Below are positions 9,614-43,211 of a DNA stretch of 64,000 nucleotides, piece after piece. The position numbers and the translations under genes are program-made. Each line of letters begins with the position of its first letter. Position 1 is the stretch's first letter. The DNA lies in the NCBI GenBank assembly GCA_045643465.1, contig JAZUKV010000010.1, positions 70,412 through 134,411 on the forward strand, given 5' to 3'. This DNA is from Clostridia bacterium. Lineage in GTDB: Bacteria > Bacillota > Clostridia > TANB77 > CAG-508. Under the pieces are notes generated by a model. That model did not search any database. It had not been told where the DNA came from and worked only from the letters and a program-made list of their open reading frames with translations.

Positions 9614-10933
9614 ATGGAAACAGAAATAATTAAACCAAAAACTTTGCCAGGATTTATGGAATTATTACCTGACGAACAAATATTATTTAATGATATGAAA
9701 GAAAAAATACAAAAATCATATGAAAGATATGGTTTTTTACCTTTAGATACACCAATAATAGAATCAGCAGATATACTTCTTGCAAAAGCAGGAGGCGAAA
9801 CAGAAAAACAAATATATAGATTTATGAAAGGTGAAAATGATTTAGCATTAAGATTTGATTTAACTGTTCCACTTGCTAAATATGTAACAGAATATTATCA
9901 AAATTTAAGTTTTCCTTTTAGAAGATATCAAATAGGTAAAGTTTATAGAGGAGAAAAAGCTCAAAGAGGTAGATTTCGTGAATTTTATCAATGTGATATA
10001 GATATAATTGGAGATGGAGAATTAAATATAATAAATGACGCGGAGCTTCCAAGTGTTATATATTCAACATTTAAAGATTTAGGTTTTGATAAATTCACTA
10101 TTTGCATGAATAATAGAAAATTATTAAATGGATTATTTGAAAGTTGTGACCTAAAAGACGAAAGTGCTAATATTTTAAGAACAATTGATAAAATAGATAA
10201 AATTGGAAAAGATGCAGTTATAAAAGAGCTAAAAGATCAATCAATTGATGAAGAAAAGATTAATTTAATAATGAAATTTATTTCAATTAATGCAAGTGTT
10301 GATGAGACAATTGAAGAGCTAAATAAATTAAATATTGATAATGAAACATTTAAAACAGGACGAGATGAGCTTCAGGATTTAGTAAAATATGTAAAAGTTT
10401 TTGGTGTTCCAGAATCTAATTTTAAAATAGATTTAACAATAGCAAGAGGTTTAGATTATTATACAGGTACAGTTTATGAAACATTTTTGGATGAATATAG
10501 ATTTTTAGGAAGTGTTTGCTCTGGTGGTAGATATGATAATTTAGCTGAATATTATACAGACAAAAAGCTTCCAGGAGTTGGAATTTCTATAGGACTTTCA
10601 AGACTATTTTTCCAATTAACATATAATAAAATAATTGAAGCTAATAAAAAGTCAACTGCAGATGTTTTGGTTATATCAATGGTTGATGATATGAGTGTTG
10701 CTGCAAAAACAGCAAATCAATTAAGATTAAATGGAATTAATACACAAATTTATTTAGAGCAAGCTAAGATAAAAAATCAATTTAAATATGCTAACAGATT
10801 AGAAATACCATATGTAGTAGTTATAGGTGAAGATGAAGTAAATAATGGAACTATTTCATTAAAAGATATGGTTACAGGGGAGCAAGAAATATTAAAGATT
10901 GAAGATGCAATTAGTAAAATAAAAAATAAATAA
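9614..10933 (+). CDS. hisS: histidine--tRNA ligase
   Basis: SD aggagga. Class II HisRS motifs are present (LRFDLTVPLAKY, YQIGKVYRGEKAQRGRFREFYQCD, GGRYDNL, GVGISIGLSRL). Confidence 0.93.
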   Translation: METEIIKPKTLPGFMELLPDEQILFNDMKEKIQKSYERYGFLPLDTPIIESADILLAKAGGETEKQIYRFMKGENDLALRFDLTVPLAKYVTEYYQNLSFPFRRYQIGKVYRGEKAQRGRFREFYQCDIDIIGDGELNIINDAELPSVIYSTFKDLGFDKFTICMNNRKLLNGLFESCDLKDESANILRTIDKIDKIGKDAVIKELKDQSIDEEKINLIMKFISINASVDETIEELNKLNIDNETFKTGRDELQDLVKYVKVFGVPESNFKIDLTIARGLDYYTGTVYETFLDEYRFLGSVCSGGRYDNLAEYYTDKKLPGVGISIGLSRLFFQLTYNKIIEANKKSTADVLVISMVDDMSVAAKTANQLRLNGINTQIYLEQAKIKNQFKYANRLEIPYVVVIGEDEVNNGTISLKDMVTGEQEILKIEDAISKIKNK

Positions 10934-11061
10934 AATTGAGAAAAGAGAAATGTGAGGAATATCTTACTTTCTCTTTTCTTTTTACCTAAAATTTCTATTG
11001 ACTTTTATACTAATCTGCTATAAACTTGATGAAGTAAAAAATGTAGAAAAAAGTTGAATTT

Positions 11062-11137
11062 GCTTGCATAGCTCAGTCGGTAGAGCACTACCTTGGTAAG
11101 GTAGTGGTCACCAGTTCGATTCTGGTTGCAAGCCCCA
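11062..11137 (+). tRNA. tRNA-Thr (anticodon GGU), CCA encoded
   Basis: Hand-folded cloverleaf. Acceptor GCTTGCA/TGCAAGC, D stem GCTC/GAGC, anticodon stem CTACC/GGTAG with loop TTGGTAA, T arm ACCAG-TTCGATT-CTGGT, discriminator C then CCA. Confidence 0.93.
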
Positions 11138-11161
11138 GTTTAGATGAAAGGAAATGATTAA

Positions 11162-12253
11162 ATGAAAATAGGAATTGTAGGACTTCCTAATGTTGGTAAA
11201 AGTACATTATTTAATGCAATAACAAATGCTGGAGCAGAATGTGCTAATTATCCATTTTGTACAATAGAGCCAAATGTTGGTGTTGTTCCAGTACCAGATG
11301 AAAGGTTAGATAATTTAGCCAAAATGTACAATCCAGAAAAAACAACACATGCAATTATAGAGTTTGTTGATATTGCAGGATTGGTTAAAGGAGCTAGTAA
11401 AGGGGAAGGTCTTGGTAATAAATTCTTATCACATATAAGAGAAGTTGATAGTATAGCTCAAGTTGTAAGATGTTTTGAAGATCCAAATGTTGTTCATGTT
11501 GATGGAAGCATTGATCCTGTGAGAGATATAGAAACAATTAATTTAGAGCTTATATTTGCAGATATAGAAACAATTGATAAAAGATTAGATAGAGCGAAGA
11601 AGAATCTAAAAGCTGATAAAAAATATCAATCTGAAATTGATGTTTTAGAAAAAATAAAATCAGCATTAGAAGCAGGAAAGACAGCCAGAACAGTTGAATT
11701 AACTGAAGAAGAAAATGAATTAATAAAAGATGCATTTCTTTTAACAATTAAACCAACATTATATATAGCAAATGTTTCAGAAGAGCAGTTAGCAGATGCT
11801 GATAATGATAAAAATGTTAAAAAAGTTAAAGAAATAGCTGCAAAAGAGCATGCTGAAGTAATACCACTTTGCGTTAAAATTGAAGAGGAATTAGCAAGTA
11901 TAGATGATAGCGAAAAAGCTGATATGTTAGAAATGTTAGGACTAACAGAATCTGGATTAGATAAAGTTATAAAATCAAGTTATGATTTATTAGGTTTAAT
12001 GTCATTTTTAACAGCAGGAGAGCCAGAAGTTAGAGCTTGGACAATTAAAAAAGGTACTAAAGCACCTCAGGCGGCTGGAAAAATTCACTCTGATATTGAA
12101 AGAGGATTTATTAGAGCAGAAATTGTTTCATATTCAGATTTAATGCGTGAAGGTTCAATGAATGCGGTAAAGGAAAAAGGTCTATTACGTTCAGAAGGAA
12201 AAGAATACATAATGCAAGATGGCGATATAGTCTTATTTAGATTTAATGTATAG
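11162..12253 (+). CDS. ychF: redox-regulated ribosome-binding ATPase YchF
   Basis: GIVGLPNVGKSTLFNA P-loop, DIAGLVKGAS, and a TGS-like C-terminus ending DGDIVLFRFNV. Confidence 0.95.
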   Translation: MKIGIVGLPNVGKSTLFNAITNAGAECANYPFCTIEPNVGVVPVPDERLDNLAKMYNPEKTTHAIIEFVDIAGLVKGASKGEGLGNKFLSHIREVDSIAQVVRCFEDPNVVHVDGSIDPVRDIETINLELIFADIETIDKRLDRAKKNLKADKKYQSEIDVLEKIKSALEAGKTARTVELTEEENELIKDAFLLTIKPTLYIANVSEEQLADADNDKNVKKVKEIAAKEHAEVIPLCVKIEEELASIDDSEKADMLEMLGLTESGLDKVIKSSYDLLGLMSFLTAGEPEVRAWTIKKGTKAPQAAGKIHSDIERGFIRAEIVSYSDLMREGSMNAVKEKGLLRSEGKEYIMQDGDIVLFRFNV

Positions 12254-13336: not shown

Positions 13337-14335
13337 ATGAAATTAAAAGAAGAAAATAATAATAATGAAAAGAAATCAAAAAAAGGCGTATATAATTTTT
13401 TGAAAAAAAGTGCAATAATATTAACTATGGTAATAAGCATAATGGGATTTTTTACATTTGTTGATGAAAAGCCAACATGGGCAGATTCAGGACATAGTGT
13501 AAGTCATAGTAGTGGTGGTAGTCATAGCAGTAGTCATAGCAGTAGTCATAGTAGCAGCAGCTACAGCAGTAGTAGTAGCCACAGCAGTAGTAGTAGCCAC
13601 AGTAGTAATGGTTCAAGTAGTGGGCTTTTTAGCAGTAGTCATCCAATAAGAGATATTTTTGTTTCATTAATACTACTAGCAATAGTAGGATTTTACCCAG
13701 GGATGATAATATTTGCTATATCAAAAGCTAATAAGAAAAGAAGATATAGTTATGGAACCCCTACAATTAATGTTATAGATGAATCAAAACTTGAACAAGA
13801 AATTAAACAAATCATACCAAACTTTGATAGAGCAGCATTCTTAAATCAAGGATTTGAAAGTTATAAAGCAATACAAGACGCATGGATGAACTTTAAGTTA
13901 GAAGATGTAAGAGCTATTTTAACAGATGAATTATATAGCATGTATGATTCTCAATTAGCAATAATGGAAACAAAGCATGAACAAAACATCATGAAAGACA
14001 TAAAAATGCAAAGTAGCAAGTTAACTGGATATACTAACCAAAATGGAACAGTAACAATTACAACAGAATATTTCATAAATCTATATGATTATATAATCAA
14101 TACAGATACAAAGAAAGTAACAAGTGGAAATGCAAACACAAGATATACAGTTCGTTATCAAATGAAGTTCAGATTATCAACAGATGAAAATGATAAAGTT
14201 GAAAATTGTCCAAATTGTGGAGCAAAAGTAGATATAAATGCAGGTGGATATTGTGCATATTGCGGTTCAAAGATAGTAACAGAAAATACAAAATGGGTAT
14301 TAACAGAAAAAAATGTTTTACAACAATGGGATTAA
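13337..14335 (+). CDS. Tim44-like domain membrane protein with C-terminal zinc ribbon (paralog 2), with a Ser/His-rich ectodomain
   Basis: Same architecture as paralog 1: TWA/DSG, (SHSS)n low complexity, a TM helix, IPNFDRAAFLNQGFESYKAIQDAWMNFKLEDV..., CPNCG...CAYCGS. SD aggag. Confidence 0.75.
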   Translation: MKLKEENNNNEKKSKKGVYNFLKKSAIILTMVISIMGFFTFVDEKPTWADSGHSVSHSSGGSHSSSHSSSHSSSSYSSSSSHSSSSSHSSNGSSSGLFSSSHPIRDIFVSLILLAIVGFYPGMIIFAISKANKKRRYSYGTPTINVIDESKLEQEIKQIIPNFDRAAFLNQGFESYKAIQDAWMNFKLEDVRAILTDELYSMYDSQLAIMETKHEQNIMKDIKMQSSKLTGYTNQNGTVTITTEYFINLYDYIINTDTKKVTSGNANTRYTVRYQMKFRLSTDENDKVENCPNCGAKVDINAGGYCAYCGSKIVTENTKWVLTEKNVLQQWD

Positions 14336-14383
14336 TGTAAATGGGGACGGTTCTTATTTCCACTTTTTTCAAAAAAGGGACAG
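14336..14383 (+). repeat. REP-like element copy A (degenerate left arm, extended tail)
   Basis: GGGGACGGTTCTTATTTCCAC (14343-14363) matches 20 of 21 positions of the 29-nt unit seen at 36705. It is followed by TTTTTTCAAAAAAGGGACA, the same tail as copy B. Confidence 0.8.
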
Positions 14384-14405
14384 TATATAAGGAGAGAAAA
14401 GATAT

Positions 14406-14951
14406 ATGAGTAGTGTTTTAGAAAATTTAATTATGCAAGATTCAGATTTTTCAGAATCAAAATTTAAATCAAAAGTAGAAAATGAATTTGTTCAAATAAA
14501 ATTATCAATGGTTACTGGGAAAACAGAAAGAATCAATCACTTTGTAACTGATGAAATTTATGATAGGATTGTTGAAAAAGTTCAAGATGATATAAATAAT
14601 AATAGAATACAAATTTATGATGAACTAAATGTAGCTAATGTTCAAATCATAAATATACAAGAGCTTGAAGATTCATTTGAAATAGAAGTTAATGTAACTT
14701 CTAGGGCATTAGAATATTTTATTAGTAGAGATAATAGAAAATTTATATCAGGAAATAATAGCTATAGAACAGAAAGAGAAAACAAATTGATATTTAGAAA
14801 AATTAAAAATGCAAGAGATATGGGAACTGCTAGAAAATGTCCTTCTTGTGGAGCTAATATGGATATAAATAAAGATGGAAAATGTTCTTATTGTGGAGCG
14901 ATATATACATTACAAAATTATGATTGGGTAATCACATATATGGATATCTAA
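14406..14951 (+). CDS. Tim44-like/zinc-ribbon paralog 3, lacking the signal peptide and TM (predicted cytoplasmic)
   Basis: SD aaggag. It aligns with the C-terminal halves of paralogs 1 and 2 and ends with CPSCG...CSYCGA...YDWVIT. Confidence 0.7.
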   Translation: MSSVLENLIMQDSDFSESKFKSKVENEFVQIKLSMVTGKTERINHFVTDEIYDRIVEKVQDDINNNRIQIYDELNVANVQIINIQELEDSFEIEVNVTSRALEYFISRDNRKFISGNNSYRTERENKLIFRKIKNARDMGTARKCPSCGANMDINKDGKCSYCGAIYTLQNYDWVITYMDI

Positions 14952-18990: not shown

Positions 18991-19050
18991 GGCGGAAAAC
19001 GGAACCGGAAAACGGGAAAACGGGAAAACGGGAAAACGGGAAAACGGGAC
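18991..19050 (+). repeat. G-rich 7-8 nt tandem repeat (GGAAAAC/GGGAAAAC)n
   Basis: ggcGGAAAAC GGAACC GGAAAAC, then four perfect GGGAAAAC units (19014-19045), running into the GGGAC of REP copy B. Confidence 0.95.
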
Positions 19051-19085
19051 GGTTCTAATTTCCACTTTTTTCAAAAAAGGGACAT
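19046..19085 (+). repeat. REP-like element copy B (left flank of the RAYT gene)
   Basis: GGGACGGTTCTAATTTCCAC is identical to positions 10-29 of the 29-nt unit. It is followed by TTTTTTCAAAAAAGGGACA, as in copy A. Confidence 0.85.
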
Positions 19086-19087
19086 AT

Positions 19088-19116
19088 TTGAAAAAAATAT
19101 AAAATTATAATATAAT
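19088..19116 (+). promoter_or_regulatory. candidate sigma-A promoter (TTGAAA-17-TATAAT) upstream of the RAYT gene
   Basis: ttgaaaaaaatataaaattataatataat. AT-rich context, so a chance match is possible. Confidence 0.4.
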
Positions 19117-19137
19117 AATTGATATTTAAATTAAGGG

Positions 19138-19179
19138 GGAATAGTAAAAAAGCATAAAAAGCTTTACTATTCCTTTTTT
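19138..19179 (+). terminator. strong intrinsic terminator (end of the ileS transcript and/or leader attenuator of the RAYT gene)
   Basis: 11-bp stem ggaatagtaaa/tttactattcc followed by T6. It sits 31 nt before the RAYT start codon. Confidence 0.8.
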
Positions 19180-19210
19180 ATATTAAAAATTATAAAAGGA
19201 GGTTTTATCT

Positions 19211-19975
19211 ATGCCACGTGTTTCAAGGAGTAGTATAAACAGCAAATATATACATATTATAGTACAAGGGTTAAATAAAGAAAAAATCTTTGACAGTGAA
19301 GAAGGCACTGAAAAATATTTAAGAGAAATTAAAGATAAAAAAGACGAATTTCAAATAAAGATATTAGCATATTGTATAATGAATAATCATGCACATTTTT
19401 TGATATATACTGATAATATAGAAAATTTATCAAAGTATATGCAAAAGGTAAATATTGCATATTCGAAATATTATAATTTAATAAAAAATAGAGTGGGTTA
19501 TGTTTTTCGTGATAGATTTTATTCTCAAGAAATTTATAATGAAAAGCAATTATATCTATGCTTAAAATATATTCATAATAATCCGGTAAAAGCGTATATA
19601 GTAAATAGTATGGGAGAATATAAATATTCTAGTTATAATGAATTTTTGAATGAGTCGATAATAATAAATAAAGAATCTGGCCAATTAATTTTTCAATCAG
19701 AAAACTATAAAGAAGAGTTTTTAAAATTACATAATAGTATAAATGATAAAAATAGTGAATTCGTTTTAAAAGAGATTAAAGAAGAAAATTTTGAATCTTT
19801 TGTAGAAAATTTTTTAACGAAATATAACATTAACCAAAAAGACATCAAGAATAATAAAGAAATTCGAGAAATATTTATAAAATTAGCTAGATTTGAATCT
19901 AATGTAAAATTAGTTGATTTAGCAGAATATATAGGATTATCGAAAAGTACAATAGGAAAGATTTCAAAGAAATAA
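19211..19975 (+). CDS. HUH/Y1 tyrosine transposase of the RayT (REP-associated tyrosine transposase, COG1943 / IS200-like) type, with a C-terminal HTH-like extension
   Basis: SD aaaggagg. Motifs YIHIIVQG, HUH (NNHAHFLI), GYVFRDRFYSQ, the catalytic Tyr helix YIHNNPVKAYIV and YKYSSY are present. The C-terminus is LVDLAEYIGLSKSTIGKISKK. There is no tnpB partner. Confidence 0.85.
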   Translation: MPRVSRSSINSKYIHIIVQGLNKEKIFDSEEGTEKYLREIKDKKDEFQIKILAYCIMNNHAHFLIYTDNIENLSKYMQKVNIAYSKYYNLIKNRVGYVFRDRFYSQEIYNEKQLYLCLKYIHNNPVKAYIVNSMGEYKYSSYNEFLNESIIINKESGQLIFQSENYKEEFLKLHNSINDKNSEFVLKEIKEENFESFVENFLTKYNINQKDIKNNKEIREIFIKLARFESNVKLVDLAEYIGLSKSTIGKISKK

Positions 19976-19989
19976 CTATTAATAAAAGA

Positions 19990-20051
19990 GTGGAAAAAAG
20001 AACCGTCCCCAATTCCACAAAAGTGGAAAAAAGAACCGTCCCTAATTCCAT
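19990..20051 (-). repeat. REP-like element copies C and D (tandem, inverted relative to copy B)
   Basis: GTGGAAAAAAGAACCGTCCCCAATTCCAC, then aaaa, then GTGGAAAAAAGAACCGTCCCTAATTCCAT. These have 2 and 4 mismatches to the reverse complement of the 29-nt unit. Confidence 0.9.
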
Positions 20052-36704: not shown

Positions 36705-36733
36705 GTGGAATTGGGGACGGTTCTAATTTCCAC
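36705..36733 (+). repeat. REP-like 29-nt unit, copy E (reference unit)
   Basis: GTGGAATTGGGGACGGTTCTAATTTCCAC. The terminal arms GTGGAA/TTCCAC are self-complementary. Confidence 0.9.
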
Positions 36734-36748
36734 AAAATAGGAAAAAAT

Positions 36749-36783
36749 GACAGATATGCGATGTGGCATATCTGTCTTTTTTT
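36749..36783 (+). terminator. aspS intrinsic terminator, nested between the two REP copies
   Basis: gacagatatgc/gcatatctgtc stem followed by T7. Confidence 0.85.
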
Positions 36784-36790
36784 ATAAAAA

Positions 36791-36819
36791 GTGGAAATTA
36801 GAACCGTCCCCAATTCCAC
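36791..36819 (-). repeat. REP-like 29-nt unit, copy F (exact reverse complement of copy E)
   Basis: GTGGAAATTAGAACCGTCCCCAATTCCAC equals the reverse complement of 36705-36733 at 29 of 29 positions. Confidence 0.95.
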
Positions 36820-42624: not shown

Positions 42625-42657
42625 AAAAGTTCCCAAAATGTTTTTTGGGGACTTTTT
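42625..42657. terminator. bidirectional terminator between rpe and the minus-strand gene
   Basis: aaaagttcccaaaa/ttttggggactttt. Confidence 0.75.
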
Positions 42658-43211
42658 TACTTTTCGGACTTTTTCTCATAATTTTTTGTAAGTGTATCTA
42701 ATAAAGCTGGATAAATAATTTCAGCATTGTTTTTCCAATTGTCTACAATTTTTTTTGCTTCATCTCGAGATCCTGCGAAAGTTTTAATTTCAAATACAGT
42801 TTCATTATTTTCCATTATTTTACAAACCACAGTATAATGATCTTCATTTAATGGTGTAAATTCTGCAATTATAGAATGTTCATTTTCAATATTTTCTAAT
42901 ATAGATTTCAAATTGGTATCAGCTTTTAATTTTATAATACCAGGAAGAATATCTAATGTTAAATCTAAAGTAGTTTTACCATGAGAAGTTAATTCATAAA
43001 CTGTTTGATCTTCTTTAGGATAACTTATAATAAAATCTGCAGATATTAAGTCTAATAAAAATTGTTGAAAGTAAAAATAATTCATATCTATAGCAGATAA
43101 TACTAATTTATAAAGATTGTCATTAGTAATGGGTTTATGAACTTGATTTAATATATATAAAATTAAAACCTTATTTTCTGCTAATGTTTCATTGTCTGAT
43201 GTAATTTTCAA
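42657..43211 (-). CDS. DUF4364-family protein (putative transcriptional regulator of Clostridia)
   Basis: The sequence ...SDNETLAENKVLILYILNQVHKPITNDNLYKLVL...NYFYFQQFLLDL matches my memory of DUF4364. The probable TTG start at 43211 lies 8 nt after SD aagggg. The ORF-track N-terminal 28 aa look non-coding. Confidence 0.65.
   Translation of the reverse strand: MKITSDNETLAENKVLILYILNQVHKPITNDNLYKLVLSAIDMNYFYFQQFLLDLISADFIISYPKEDQTVYELTSHGKTTLDLTLDILPGIIKLKADTNLKSILENIENEHSIIAEFTPLNEDHYTVVCKIMENNETVFEIKTFAGSRDEAKKIVDNWKNNAEIIYPALLDTLTKNYEKKSEK

Follow-up and report, generated by a model that had tools for sequence, protein, structure and literature searches.

The stretch of DNA analyzed here, 64,000 nucleotides from a gut Clostridia bacterium (hereafter the window), has a GC content of 26.9% and carries on its forward strand, at 19211–19975, a gene for a 254-aa Y1 HUH protein of the RayT/TIRYT type. 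All of the Y1 motifs that an initial annotation had read in this open reading frame are in place, namely YIHIIVQG, NNHAHFLI, GYVFRDRFYSQ, YIHNNPVKAYIV, and YKYSSY, followed by the C-terminal LVDLAEYIGLSKSTIGKISKK. The gene lies between a 929-aa, ileS-sized open reading frame, which we take to be ileS, and a gene of the phosphorylase family. The two flanking ORFs include no tnpB and no other insertion sequence (IS) gene, and no second homolog of the protein is present within the 64-kb window, so that the earlier description of a single Y1 gene with no second IS gene beside it holds.

The nuclease domain is N-terminal, with the HUH motif at H60-A-H62 and the tyrosine at Tyr120, whereas the C-terminal part (approximately residues 194–253) is a helical domain with an HTH, the helices of which are confident in an AF2 model of the protein (pLDDT 87.6). 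The HTH-like extension proposed from the letters alone also appears in relatives: HTH families are found in 29 of 36 homologs (HTH_3 in 29/36, HTH_23 in 9/36, HTH_28 in 6/36), the family profile matches the HTH protein 8TAC, and the C terminus of the window protein is XRE-like. Profile searches likewise support the HUH and Tyr assignments. Pfam Y1_Tnp matches the protein with an E-value of 1e-10, and NCBIfam NF047646 (REP_Tyr_transpos) scores 75.8 bits, 4 below its curated cutoff of 80, against 15.2 bits for NF033573 (IS200), whose cutoff is 55. In a Foldseek search with the AF2 model, the first-ranked structure was 4ER8, the E. coli TnpA-REP protein (E 2e-6, target TM 0.71, rmsd 3.1 over 148 columns), with the TnpA proteins of IS608 and ISDra2 below it. 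In a profile match, the 4ER8 residue opposite Y120 is the first Y of YIYINPV, number 115 by chain count and presumably the catalytic tyrosine. H60-A-H62, Y120, and 31 other residues are invariant among 36 aligned homologs, and the invariance of the HUH and Tyr residues speaks for a nuclease that continues to be used. Sequence and model together thus predict a RayT-like rather than an IS200-like protein.

We saw no identical paralogs within the homolog-bearing genomes examined. Six metagenome-assembled genomes (MAGs) have two divergent paralogs each, and in these pairs each gene has its own hairpin type. Plasmids and phages rarely carry the family, with occasional plasmid copies. The gene, one in the 64 kb, is best described as chromosomal and vertically inherited, encoding a predicted Y1 HUH single-stranded DNA nuclease/ligase fused to a C-terminal HTH domain.

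On its upstream side, the gene is preceded by a tandem array of 8-nt repeats (19003–19049; 5.9 copies of GGGAAAAC) that abuts and overlaps the 5′ arm of an outer unit at 19039–19065. This outer unit is oriented like the gene (+) and forms a weak hairpin with a GGAAA/TTTCC stem and a loop holding GGGACGGTTCT. Next to it, an inner hairpin on the same strand at 19066–19096 (TTTTTTCAAA-AAAGGGACATA-TTTGAAAAAA) has a perfect 10-bp stem, carries GGGACA in its loop, and lies 114 nt before the ATG; an equivalent inner GGGACA unit occurs at homolog loci L014, L017, and L021. The −35 box of a promoter-like site, TTGAAA-17-TATAAT (19088–19116, +; a consensus match only, at 11 of 12 positions), falls inside the 3′ arm of this inner hairpin, and the TATAAT hexamer is largely invariant in a three-species alignment with L014 and L021. 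A further hairpin followed by TTTTTT (19138–19179, +) lies downstream of this site and ahead of the ribosome-binding site, within a 91-nt stretch that folds at −12.5 kcal/mol (z −2.4). It was missed by the terminator scan because of its GC-poor stem, and may act either as a leader attenuator or as the terminator of ileS.

On the downstream side there are two 29-mer hairpins, both inverted (−) relative to the upstream unit. The inner one (GTGGAATTGGGGACGGTTCTTTTTTCCAC, 19990–20018) starts 14 bp past the stop codon, and the outer one (ATGGAATTAGGGACGGTTCTTTTTTCCAC, 20023–20051) ends at ~10 bp distance from the convergent phosphorylase gene's stop codon. Inverted hairpins bracket the gene, as an outer and an inner unit upstream and as two units downstream, and the flanking copies read at the outset (core at 19046+ upstream, units at 19990− and 20023− downstream) are those seen here.

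The core of the element, GGGACGGTTC, matches six places in the window, at 14344+, 19046+, 20000−, 20033−, 36714+, and 36801−. Dinucleotide-preserving shuffles give a chance expectation of 0.07, and none of 100 shuffles reached six. Three of these copies lie at two sites away from the gene. Every copy is intergenic and at the 3′ end of a gene, standing out from the AT-rich background as had been claimed. GGGAC occurs 14 times in the window, nine times between genes, and eight of those nine intergenic occurrences belong to the hairpin element. The loop is 11–13 nt long and has conserved GGGGAC(G) at its start, here GGGGACGGTTCT. Several copies are followed by T-runs. At gathering thresholds Rfam places the hairpin in no family, its sole match in the window being a tRNA. 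No GTAG lies beside any of the six copies, so that these are not classic GTAG-type REPs. A metagenome scan with the window's own 27-mer returned no matches.

The recurrence of the full 29-mer, as first described, stands in part. It is exact at 36705+ and 36791− and has two mismatches at 19990−, but the GTGGAATT 5′ arm is missing from the copies at 14343 and 19046, which are thus not the palindromic 29-mer. They share instead a longer left-end unit, GGGACGGTTCTwATTTCCAC-TTTTTTCAAAAAA-GGGACA.

The two sites away from the gene show the element in two forms. At 14343–14383 (+) there is a solo unit of the left-end type (GGGGACGGTTCTTATTTCCAC-TTTTTTCAAAAAA-GGGACAG), between two codirectional genes with Tim44-like domains. 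The orthologous spacers of L014 and L021 are without it, a difference that could reflect loss instead of gain, and the site is identical in a metagenome contig (L209) that is apparently of the same strain. The second site is a doublet without a gene. Its left arm, a perfect 29-mer (36705–36733, +), starts 2 bp after the aspS stop codon; its right arm is a perfect inverted 29-mer (36791–36819, −); and the two enclose a terminator-like hairpin with an 11-bp stem and a T7 run (36749–36783, +). A 125-nt stretch that contains the whole 115-bp unit (36705–36819) has a folding energy of −49.1 kcal/mol (z −15). The element is thus not confined to the ends of the ORF, since one unit stands alone and two others form a doublet with no gene between them. 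Several lineages have the spacer downstream of aspS occupied, and at loci L074 and L059 a paralog is located at the aspS-side site, so the doublet may be the remnant of a deleted paralog; against this, it matches the type of the resident gene rather than that of the paralogs. Orthologous spacers are too diverged to define the exact ends of the element.

The hairpin recurs beside homologs of the gene. Homolog loci were gathered by an alignment-based search; a query with the single protein found one locus. At 53 of the 79 loci with usable flanks, a perfect stem of at least 6 bp surrounds GGG[AT]C upstream of the gene, compared with 2.7 expected from shuffled flanks, and at ~60 of the 79 the same element lies inverted downstream. 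Homologs of at least ~47% identity have the same core upstream in + orientation, and the inverted core lies 13–122 bp past the stop codon. The stems covary: 96% of cells are paired versus 51% in shuffles, a percentage that is inflated by the choice of hairpins through a stem search, for which the shuffled-flank control is a partial remedy. Double changes occur at all seven pairs, and none of 500 shuffles reaches the observed score. Many of the stems are AT-rich and of few base pairs, and they enclose large loops. On this sequence evidence, the putative cognate DNA of the protein is a short hairpin in which the stem appears to drift freely while its pairing is kept and the loop GGGGAC(G) is conserved.

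This pattern is also seen in the slot between ileS and the phosphorylase gene, which is common to three species. There, IleS is 82% and the phosphorylase 89% identical, the RayT-like protein is only 55–57% identical, and the loop is kept while the stems differ. Other relatives have the gene in different genomic contexts. Over greater distances the same 20-mer adjoins homologs in distant phyla: GGGACGGTTCTATTTTCCAC lies beside homologs in MAGs of Nitrospirae and Thermodesulfobacteriota, and the Clostridia version differs from it only at two W positions, while Acetoanaerobium has the shorter core GGGACGGTTCT. A near-unchanged GGGGAC-loop hairpin is thus found beside homologs of only 28–57% protein identity. 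Proteins with a common loop class resemble each other more, a link that host phylogeny alone could produce.

Further copies are also scattered through related genomes, which have the element on many contigs and the gene once or twice, in keeping with the expectation that the element would occur elsewhere in the genome. In the MAG of the closest relative (CAKPKU01), it is present on at least eight contigs in at least 14 copies, and the complete 2.63-Mb replicon of Acetoanaerobium noterae has one gene and 33 matching places. The flanks of the homologs, 818 kb in all, hold 54 extra copies, but at 27 of 49 loci there is none within ±10 kb, so dispersal is not universal. Judged from the relatives and from 64 kb of the source organism, copy numbers are in the tens, not the hundreds. 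Paired copies in relatives are strongly polar, 59 being in +/− order and one in −/+, and a doublet resembles the pair of ends that flank the gene, with the gene itself missing. In sum, copies away from the gene are situated at 3′ gene ends elsewhere, either singly or as polar +/− doublets.

It is useful to set this locus beside the systems already described. A TIRYT, in the scheme of Di Nocera, De Gregorio & Rocco (2013, PMC3733652), is a RayT-like Y1 gene that together with terminal inverted repeats bearing a GGGGWSAS-type motif makes up a TIRtron, and the repeats of TIRtrons are also dispersed and moderately abundant as singles, dimers, and clusters (PMC3733652). In phmmer comparisons with the TIRYTs of their Additional file 5, the window protein scored 82.6 bits with gbm_2474, 80.2 with tkm_1558, 73.5 with pca_3049, and 61.8 with dau_2153. 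The REP-flanked classic RAYTs gave lower values (eco_b228, 13.6; pfs_4255, 18.1; sml_2816, 22.1; pfs_3939, 27.5 bits), so that by sequence the protein is nearer to the TIRYTs (60–83 bits) than to the classic RAYTs (14–28). The label dau presumably denotes Desulforudis audaxviator, a member of the Clostridia. The match to the TIRYT description has exceptions. The outer units of the window read GGGGACGG, with G at position 7 where GGGGWSAS has A, and the inner units read AGGGACAT and AGGGACAG, GGGACA being found in inner units only; many homolog loci, however, fit GGGGWSAS exactly (for example, GGGGACAC and GGGGACAG). Most listed TIRYTs end in "...GRPxG...GRPRK", whereas the window protein ends in an XRE-like HTH. 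In addition, PMC3733652 treats the ends as terminal inverted repeats, whereas here they are hairpins with covarying stems and the motif in the loop.

In the survey of Quentin, Siguier, Chandler & Fichant (2018, PMC6006769), TnpA-REP subclass 2.1 comprises long Y1 proteins extended at the C terminus by an HTH-like part (Bac_DnaA_C, HTH_23, or HTH_28), is patchy across phyla, and is equated by the authors with TIRYT. We provisionally place the window protein in this subclass because 20 of 26 TIRYTs fall within it (PMC6006769). Its 254-aa length and HTH extension agree, as do the HTH_23 and HTH_28 matches among the homologs (9/36 and 6/36), and domain content puts it probably in 2.1.2. The difference is that the survey found no REP-like sequences near subclass 2.1 genes (PMC6006769), whereas a REP-like hairpin flanks most of the homologs here. 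RAYT group 1 of Bertels, Gallie & Rainey (2017, PMC5581495) has the widest taxonomic spread, 21 classes with Clostridia included, a low gene copy number, and flanking 16-mers at ~12 per replicon, for which no repeat anatomy is given. That figure fits the tens of copies seen here, and the window protein probably belongs to group 1.

The E. coli protein TnpA-REP (RayT, YafM; 4ER8), whose structure entry is titled as binding a DNA hairpin, has the same fold and catalytic residues, and the E. coli REP/BIME arrangement likewise joins a single gene with inverted palindromic flanks to repeats scattered outside genes. However, the E. coli protein is only ~19% identical to that of the window (13.6 bits) and lacks the HTH domain, the solved chain having 165 aa. 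REPs have small loops and, at the stem foot, a conserved GTAG (PMC3733652); here, in contrast, it is a large loop that contains the conserved bases, and the stem can vary freely. The REPIN-RAYT systems of Pseudomonas (Bertels & Rainey 2011, PMC3116915) share the inverted doublets, the single-copy and vertically inherited gene, and a repeat family for each paralog, but belong to RAYT groups 2 and 3 and have GTAG-type REPs in hundreds rather than tens. The TnpA proteins of IS200/IS605 (IS608, ISDra2) share the Y1 HUH fold and presumably the recognition of single-stranded hairpins; they differ in that the present locus has no tnpB, no repeated gene copies, and inverted ends. The left- and right-end hairpins of IS608 lie on the same strand. 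We rejected an IS200/IS605 reading on the 15.2-bit score with the IS200 model, the first rank of 4ER8 among structures, the inverted ends, the single gene copy, and the lack of tnpB. The "CGTC-tagged REPs" of Di Nocera were also considered, since the reverse complement of the element contains CGTC, and were rejected because they have 8- to 9-bp stems, 4- to 5-nt loops, the tag at the stem foot, and no linked transposase.

Taken together, these comparisons point to a REP/RAYT-type system as the likely identity of the locus, within the TIRYT clade (TnpA-REP subclass 2.1 and probably RAYT group 1). Each of the initially suggested refuting checks that was run favored a system of this type. The REP/RAYT architecture that had been proposed for the locus is accordingly kept as to type, but the branch is TIRYT/2.1 and not that of the GTAG-REP RAYTs of E. 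coli and Pseudomonas. The closest competitor is an autonomous insertion sequence, a TIRtron in which the gene and its inverted ends transpose as a unit, with the solo units and doublets as MITE-like deletion derivatives, and which would be selfish and horizontally spread rather than domesticated. Terminal inverted repeats do bound the gene, and the doublets share the +/− order of its ends; the same 20-mer stands beside homologs in distant phyla, gene contexts vary among relatives, and subclass 2.1.2 and RAYT group 1 are patchy across phyla with occasional plasmid copies (PMC6006769; PMC5581495). Yet the gene keeps the same ileS–phosphorylase slot in three species, where housekeeping proteins are 82–89% and this protein 55–57% identical. 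No identical within-genome copies were seen, there being one gene in the window and one in the complete genome with its 33 element copies, and the inverted ends are unlike the direct-orientation hairpin ends of IS200/IS605. We consider a mobile unit of this kind unlikely.

We give still less credence to a mainly regulatory or structural role in the host, in which the hairpins would be terminators, mRNA stabilizers, or double-stranded operators for the HTH, the protein a site-specific DNA-binding regulator that has ceased to move DNA, and the copies ancient or otherwise spread. The position of all copies at 3′ gene ends, several with T-runs, would suit such a role, as would the terminator-like hairpin inside the doublet, the overlap of a promoter-like site with the inner hairpin, the C-terminal HTH, and the occupation of the spacer downstream of aspS in several lineages. 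Dimeric HTH proteins have palindromic operators that would likewise keep inverted symmetry; the loop here, however, is asymmetric, which makes a symmetric dimer operator unlikely. The catalytic HUH and Tyr residues are invariant in 36/36 aligned homologs, the stems are weak as terminators and the scan called none of them, and the presence of the element varies at orthologous sites. Moreover, the near-identical copies in one genome, two of them perfect 29-mers, suggest recent copying. Finally, a repeat lying by chance or through an assembly artefact beside an unrelated transposase-like ORF is barely credible. The window has only six copies, but 0.07 were expected by chance, dozens of independent assemblies and one finished genome show the association again, and the same sequence is present in an independent metagenome contig; chance expectation, recurrence across loci, and the independent contig refute this explanation.

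On the REP/RAYT-type reading, with E. coli TnpA-REP and IS608 TnpA taken as models, the protein would bind the hairpin in single-stranded DNA, at a replication fork or in a cruciform. Recognition would be through the bases of the loop and the shape of the stem, and cleavage would occur nearby through Tyr120 and an HUH-bound metal, to be followed by strand rejoining. Solo units and doublets could thereby be copied or moved, while the gene itself would stay put. As the 3′ arm of the inner hairpin contains the −35 box of the likely promoter, the protein may in addition be a repressor of its own gene, possibly via the HTH. A broader proposal, which we advance tentatively and regard as possible but on the doubtful side, is that the GGGGAC-loop hairpin is the common recognition element of the whole TIRYT/2.1 clade, an ancient REP-like system unlike GTAG REPs in that the loop is conserved and the stem free; that it forms active REPIN-like polar doublets in small, AT-rich gut Clostridia; and that the nuclease represses itself through the promoter-overlapping inner hairpin.

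The novelty that the initial annotation saw in such an architecture outside the Proteobacteria was overstated, since RAYT group 1 occurs in Clostridia (PMC5581495) and the TIRYT "dau" is in the 2013 list. A TIRYT/subclass 2.1 system in Clostridia is already catalogued, and the locus adds an expected member to a known class. What may be unreported is the anatomy of the hairpin and its cross-phylum conservation. Literature searches with the core motif strings returned only unrelated papers, and the literature searched yielded no experimental work on the TIRYT/2.1 branch. What is known of REP/RAYT biology comes from experiments in E. coli and population studies in Pseudomonas. TIRYT/2.1 is the second largest TnpA-REP subclass and extends across many phyla, and the main survey left it without a REP-like partner. 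To this branch, the present locus and its relatives offer a concrete candidate DNA partner in the GGGGAC-loop hairpin, doublets of clear geometry, and a compact, AT-rich genome against which the element is conspicuous. Should the proposed mechanism be right, recognition by domesticated Y1 nucleases would extend from motifs at the foot of a stem to motifs in a loop, and a new hairpin-specific nuclease/ligase pair for single-stranded DNA would be gained.

The Y1 gene at 19211–19975 (+) lies between inverted copies of a short repeat whose core, GGGACGGTTC, matches the window at six positions (14344+, 19046+, 20000−, 20033−, 36714+ and 36801−), against 0.07 matches expected from dinucleotide-preserving shuffles. 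The inverted, dispersed 29-nt repeat that the initial annotation described around this ORF is thus borne out, coordinates included. The claim that the 29-mer itself recurs at every site stands only in part: the match to GTGGAATTGGGGACGGTTCTAATTTCCAC is perfect at 36705 (+) and 36791 (−) and includes two mismatches at 19990 (−), but the copies at 14343 and 19046 both lack the GTGGAATT arm. What these two copies have in common is a longer unit, GGGACGGTTCTwATTTCCAC-TTTTTTCAAAAAA-GGGACA, the second part of which forms a perfect hairpin upstream of the gene (19066–19096; TTTTTTCAAA-AAAGGGACATA-TTTGAAAAAA). In the window, which has a GC content of 26.9%, GGGAC occurs 14 times; 9 of these 14 occurrences are intergenic, and 8 of the 9 are part of this repeat element. 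A further intergenic GGGGAC at 42641–42670 (ttttttgGGGACttttttac), without a recognizable stem or GGTTC tail, could be either a degraded copy or a chance occurrence. Directly adjoining the upstream unit is a tandem array made up of 5.9 copies of the 8-mer GGGAAAAC (19003–19049), each repeat being a possible alternative 5′ arm (GGAAA) for the upstream hairpin; no such array is found at the corresponding position in two relatives, the MAGs CAKPKU01 (L014) and CAKPRA01 (L021). The solo element at 14343 sits in a 70-bp spacer between two neighboring Tim44-like (PF04280) genes (13337–14951), ahead of which a metagenome contig apparently from the same strain (L209) carries a third. Rfam, at gathering thresholds, recognizes only a tRNA gene in the window (11062–11134).

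The ORF encodes 254 aa with every motif originally quoted for it, has no paralog within the 64-kb window and, as annotated, stands beside no second IS gene, its neighbors being a 929-aa ileS-like ORF and a phosphorylase-family gene. HMM searches agree with the proposed Y1/RayT identity: Pfam Y1_Tnp matches at E 1e-10, and NCBIfam REP_Tyr_transpos scores 75.8 bits, below its cutoff of 80 and well above the 15.2 bits of the IS200 model (cutoff 55). The E. coli TnpA-REP structure 4ER8 is the top match among PDB sequences for a profile of 36 homologs, and with the AlphaFold model of the window protein (pLDDT 87.6) as Foldseek query it again ranks first in the PDB (target TM 0.71), with IS608 and ISDra2 TnpA behind. 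Y120 aligns with the first Y of YIYINPV in 4ER8, counted as residue 115 of that chain, which we take as the catalytic tyrosine. In the model a helical domain makes up the final ∼60 residues, and this C-terminal domain matches HTH_3 in 29, HTH_23 in 9 and HTH_28 in 6 of the 36 homologs. Against the reference sequences that Di Nocera et al. (2013, PMC3733652) give in their Additional file 5, the protein scores 60–83 bits with the TIRYTs gbm_2474, tkm_1558, pca_3049 and dau_2153 but only 14–28 bits with the REP-flanked RAYTs eco_b228, pfs_3939, pfs_4255 and sml_2816, and we therefore place it within the TIRYT clade. This clade corresponds to TnpA-REP subclass 2.1, long proteins with a C-terminal HTH (Quentin et al. 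2018, PMC6006769).

An alignment-based scan with one genome per species gave 556 relatives, from which 80 loci were kept, mostly from gut or rumen “Clostridia bacterium” MAGs. Almost all homologs of at least ∼47% identity have GGGACGGTTC upstream (+) and downstream (−), and when the two flanks of each gene were compared for their best inverted repeat, with no motif given beforehand, ∼60 loci yielded a terminal inverted repeat. Viewed as single strands, the repeats take the form of hairpins, usually 100–125 nt ahead of the ATG, with perfect stems of 5–15 bp whose sequence is unrelated from locus to locus and a loop that starts with (N)GGGGAC(G/A). In an ungapped alignment of 27 hairpins, 96.3% of cells are paired compared with 51% in shuffles, a value inflated because these hairpins were chosen by stem search; each of the seven stem pairs has changed on both sides, and neither shuffles nor slid registers approach the observed value. 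A fairer measure comes from the shuffled-flank control: a perfect stem of ≥6 bp accompanies GGG[AT]C in 53 of 79 loci, with 2.7 expected once the flanks of each GGG[AT]C are shuffled. Proteins sharing a loop class are 48.7% identical, compared with 42.5% for others (0 of 1000 permutations), which fits co-diversification, although host phylogeny could also account for it. A different flank, GTCCCCACTGGTTCCGGG...TGGGGAC, in which GGGGAC is stem rather than loop, is common to seven homolog loci (L027, L028, L030, L037, L047, L076 and L091) and lies ∼190–230 bp downstream and 75–160 bp upstream of several homologs.

The core reaches well beyond these relatives. GGGACGGTTCTATTTTCCAC adjoins homologs of only 28–31% identity, one from a Nitrospirae MAG and one from a Thermodesulfobacteriota MAG; these proteins are 233- to 234-aa TIRYTs with a GRPRK-type tail. 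There the inverted 20-mer GTGGAAAATAGAACCGTCCC, equal to the window core except at two variable W positions, overlaps the final codons of the gene, its stop codon included (..SGK*; L004 3403–3422 and L007 945–1003). In Acetoanaerobium noterae the homolog is 32% identical, and the core flanking it is the shorter GGGACGGTTCT. Several homolog ORFs run into the downstream repeat (e.g., ...WKKEPSQ... in the homolog P0027); in the annotated ORFs of P0027, P0030 and P0074, tails such as KKWKKEPSQIPKWKKEPSQ are translated hairpin.

Gene and repeats appear to differ in their mobility. The homolog occupies the same ileS–phosphorylase slot in CAKPKU01 and CAKPRA01, two other species; across the three, ileS is 82% and the phosphorylase 89% identical in amino acids, the Y1 homolog only 55–57%. 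All three retain the loop GGGGACGGTTCT but have different stem arms (GTGGAATT/AATTTCCAC in the window, GGAAAAG/CTTTTCC in CAKPKU01 and GGGAAAAG/CTTTTCCC in CAKPRA01). This pattern points to a Y1 gene inherited vertically in one fixed position and not hopping as an IS. Plasmids seldom carry members of the family (17 of 72,556 records, all of them distant), and phages hardly ever do. Genomes with two Y1 paralogs have a separate hairpin family for each. A long palindrome in CAKPRA01 (L073 7026–7090) joins the 5′ arm GGGAAAAG to the 3′ arm ATTGACAACC of the second family around the shared loop GGGGACGGTTCT and looks like a chimera of the two.

The repeats, by comparison, differ in position and number. 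Neither relative has the 14343 unit in its orthologous spacer. Extra copies lie within ±10 kb in 22 of 49 homolog loci (54 copies in 818 kb), and an exact 19-mer scan placed the element on at least 8 contigs of CAKPKU01, in at least 14 copies; among the matches listed were many contigs of other MAGs and several other phyla. The 2.63-Mb finished replicon of A. noterae has one Y1 gene and 33 places matching its 37-nt end, and no other record has more than one. This replicon (NZ_CP154629.1, locus L210) has 4 annotated features and is listed in PLSDB as “plasmid pTPELB2”; it is probably the chromosome, and was treated as a complete genome. Neighboring inverted copies stand in the order + then − in 59 cases and in the opposite order in 1. 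Since this is also the order of the Y1 gene's two ends, doublets such as 36705–36819 resemble those ends minus the gene, in the manner of REPINs. The spacer right after the aspS stop codon holds an element in four lineages, each in its own genome's hairpin type (window 36705–36819, L135 ∼2040–2100, L074 ∼10750–10870 and L059 ∼10750–11430), with a Y1 paralog also present in L074 and L059; no GGGAC-type element is found at this site in L078 and L184. The spacer may be favored as a target, or it may be a site of long standing that evolves in concert with the resident gene.

The architecture and its conservation are observed, as are covarying stems, catalytic residues that are intact, and dispersed copies; we consider it probable that this is a REP/RAYT-type system in which a resident Y1 nuclease spreads hairpin units while its gene stays. 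By analogy with E. coli TnpA-REP on its REP hairpin (4ER8) and with IS608 TnpA, the protein would recognize the hairpin in single-stranded DNA through the GGGGAC loop and stem shape, cleave through Tyr120 with an HUH-bound metal, and rejoin strands. Such cutting and rejoining would spread solo units and doublets, the Y1 gene itself being immobile. The protein might also control its own expression. A good promoter-like site, TTGAAA-17-TATAAT (19088–19116), has its −35 box inside the 3′ arm of the inner hairpin, and its TATAAT hexamer is largely invariant across the three-species alignment; protein bound at this site, perhaps through its HTH, could act as a repressor of the gene. Between this site and the ribosome-binding site lies a hairpin whose 13-bp stem is interrupted and after which comes TTTTTT (19138–19179), speculatively a leader attenuator of Y1 expression or the ileS terminator.

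An autonomous IS bounded by terminal inverted repeats, with the scattered units as its MITE derivatives, seems unlikely to us: the Y1 gene is syntenic in three species, and no identical gene copies were seen. That the hairpins are mainly regulatory and the protein no longer moves DNA is, in our estimation, rather improbable, as the catalytic residues are invariant, the loop is asymmetric and the copies are near-identical. A chance association of repeat and Y1 ORF has a negligible probability.

Judged by its sequence architecture, the system behaves like REP/RAYT. GTAG-type REPs carry their conserved bases at the stem foot, whereas those of the window element lie in a large loop, so it is not a REP of that type. 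It largely matches TIRYTs/TIRtrons as Di Nocera et al. describe them, with ends that carry a GGGGWSAS-type motif and form moderately abundant dispersed families as singles, dimers or clusters (PMC3733652); at position 7 of this motif the window's outer units have G in place of A. With its length and C-terminal HTH, the protein also fits subclass 2.1 of Quentin et al., who found no REP-like sequences close to genes of this subclass. The REP/RAYT interpretation of the initial annotation is supported and its family assignment sharpened to this clade; its suggestion of novelty for Clostridia is overstated, since this class of system has been recorded before, in Clostridia too. Our literature search found neither a paper containing the core motif nor work on a system of this kind from Clostridia. 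Three points seem to be advances: the ends fold as hairpins in which the loop is conserved and the stem can vary freely, conservation of the core 20-mer extends across phyla, and doublet polarity is strict. Overall, the window locus is a clean example that could serve as a model for an unstudied but widespread branch.
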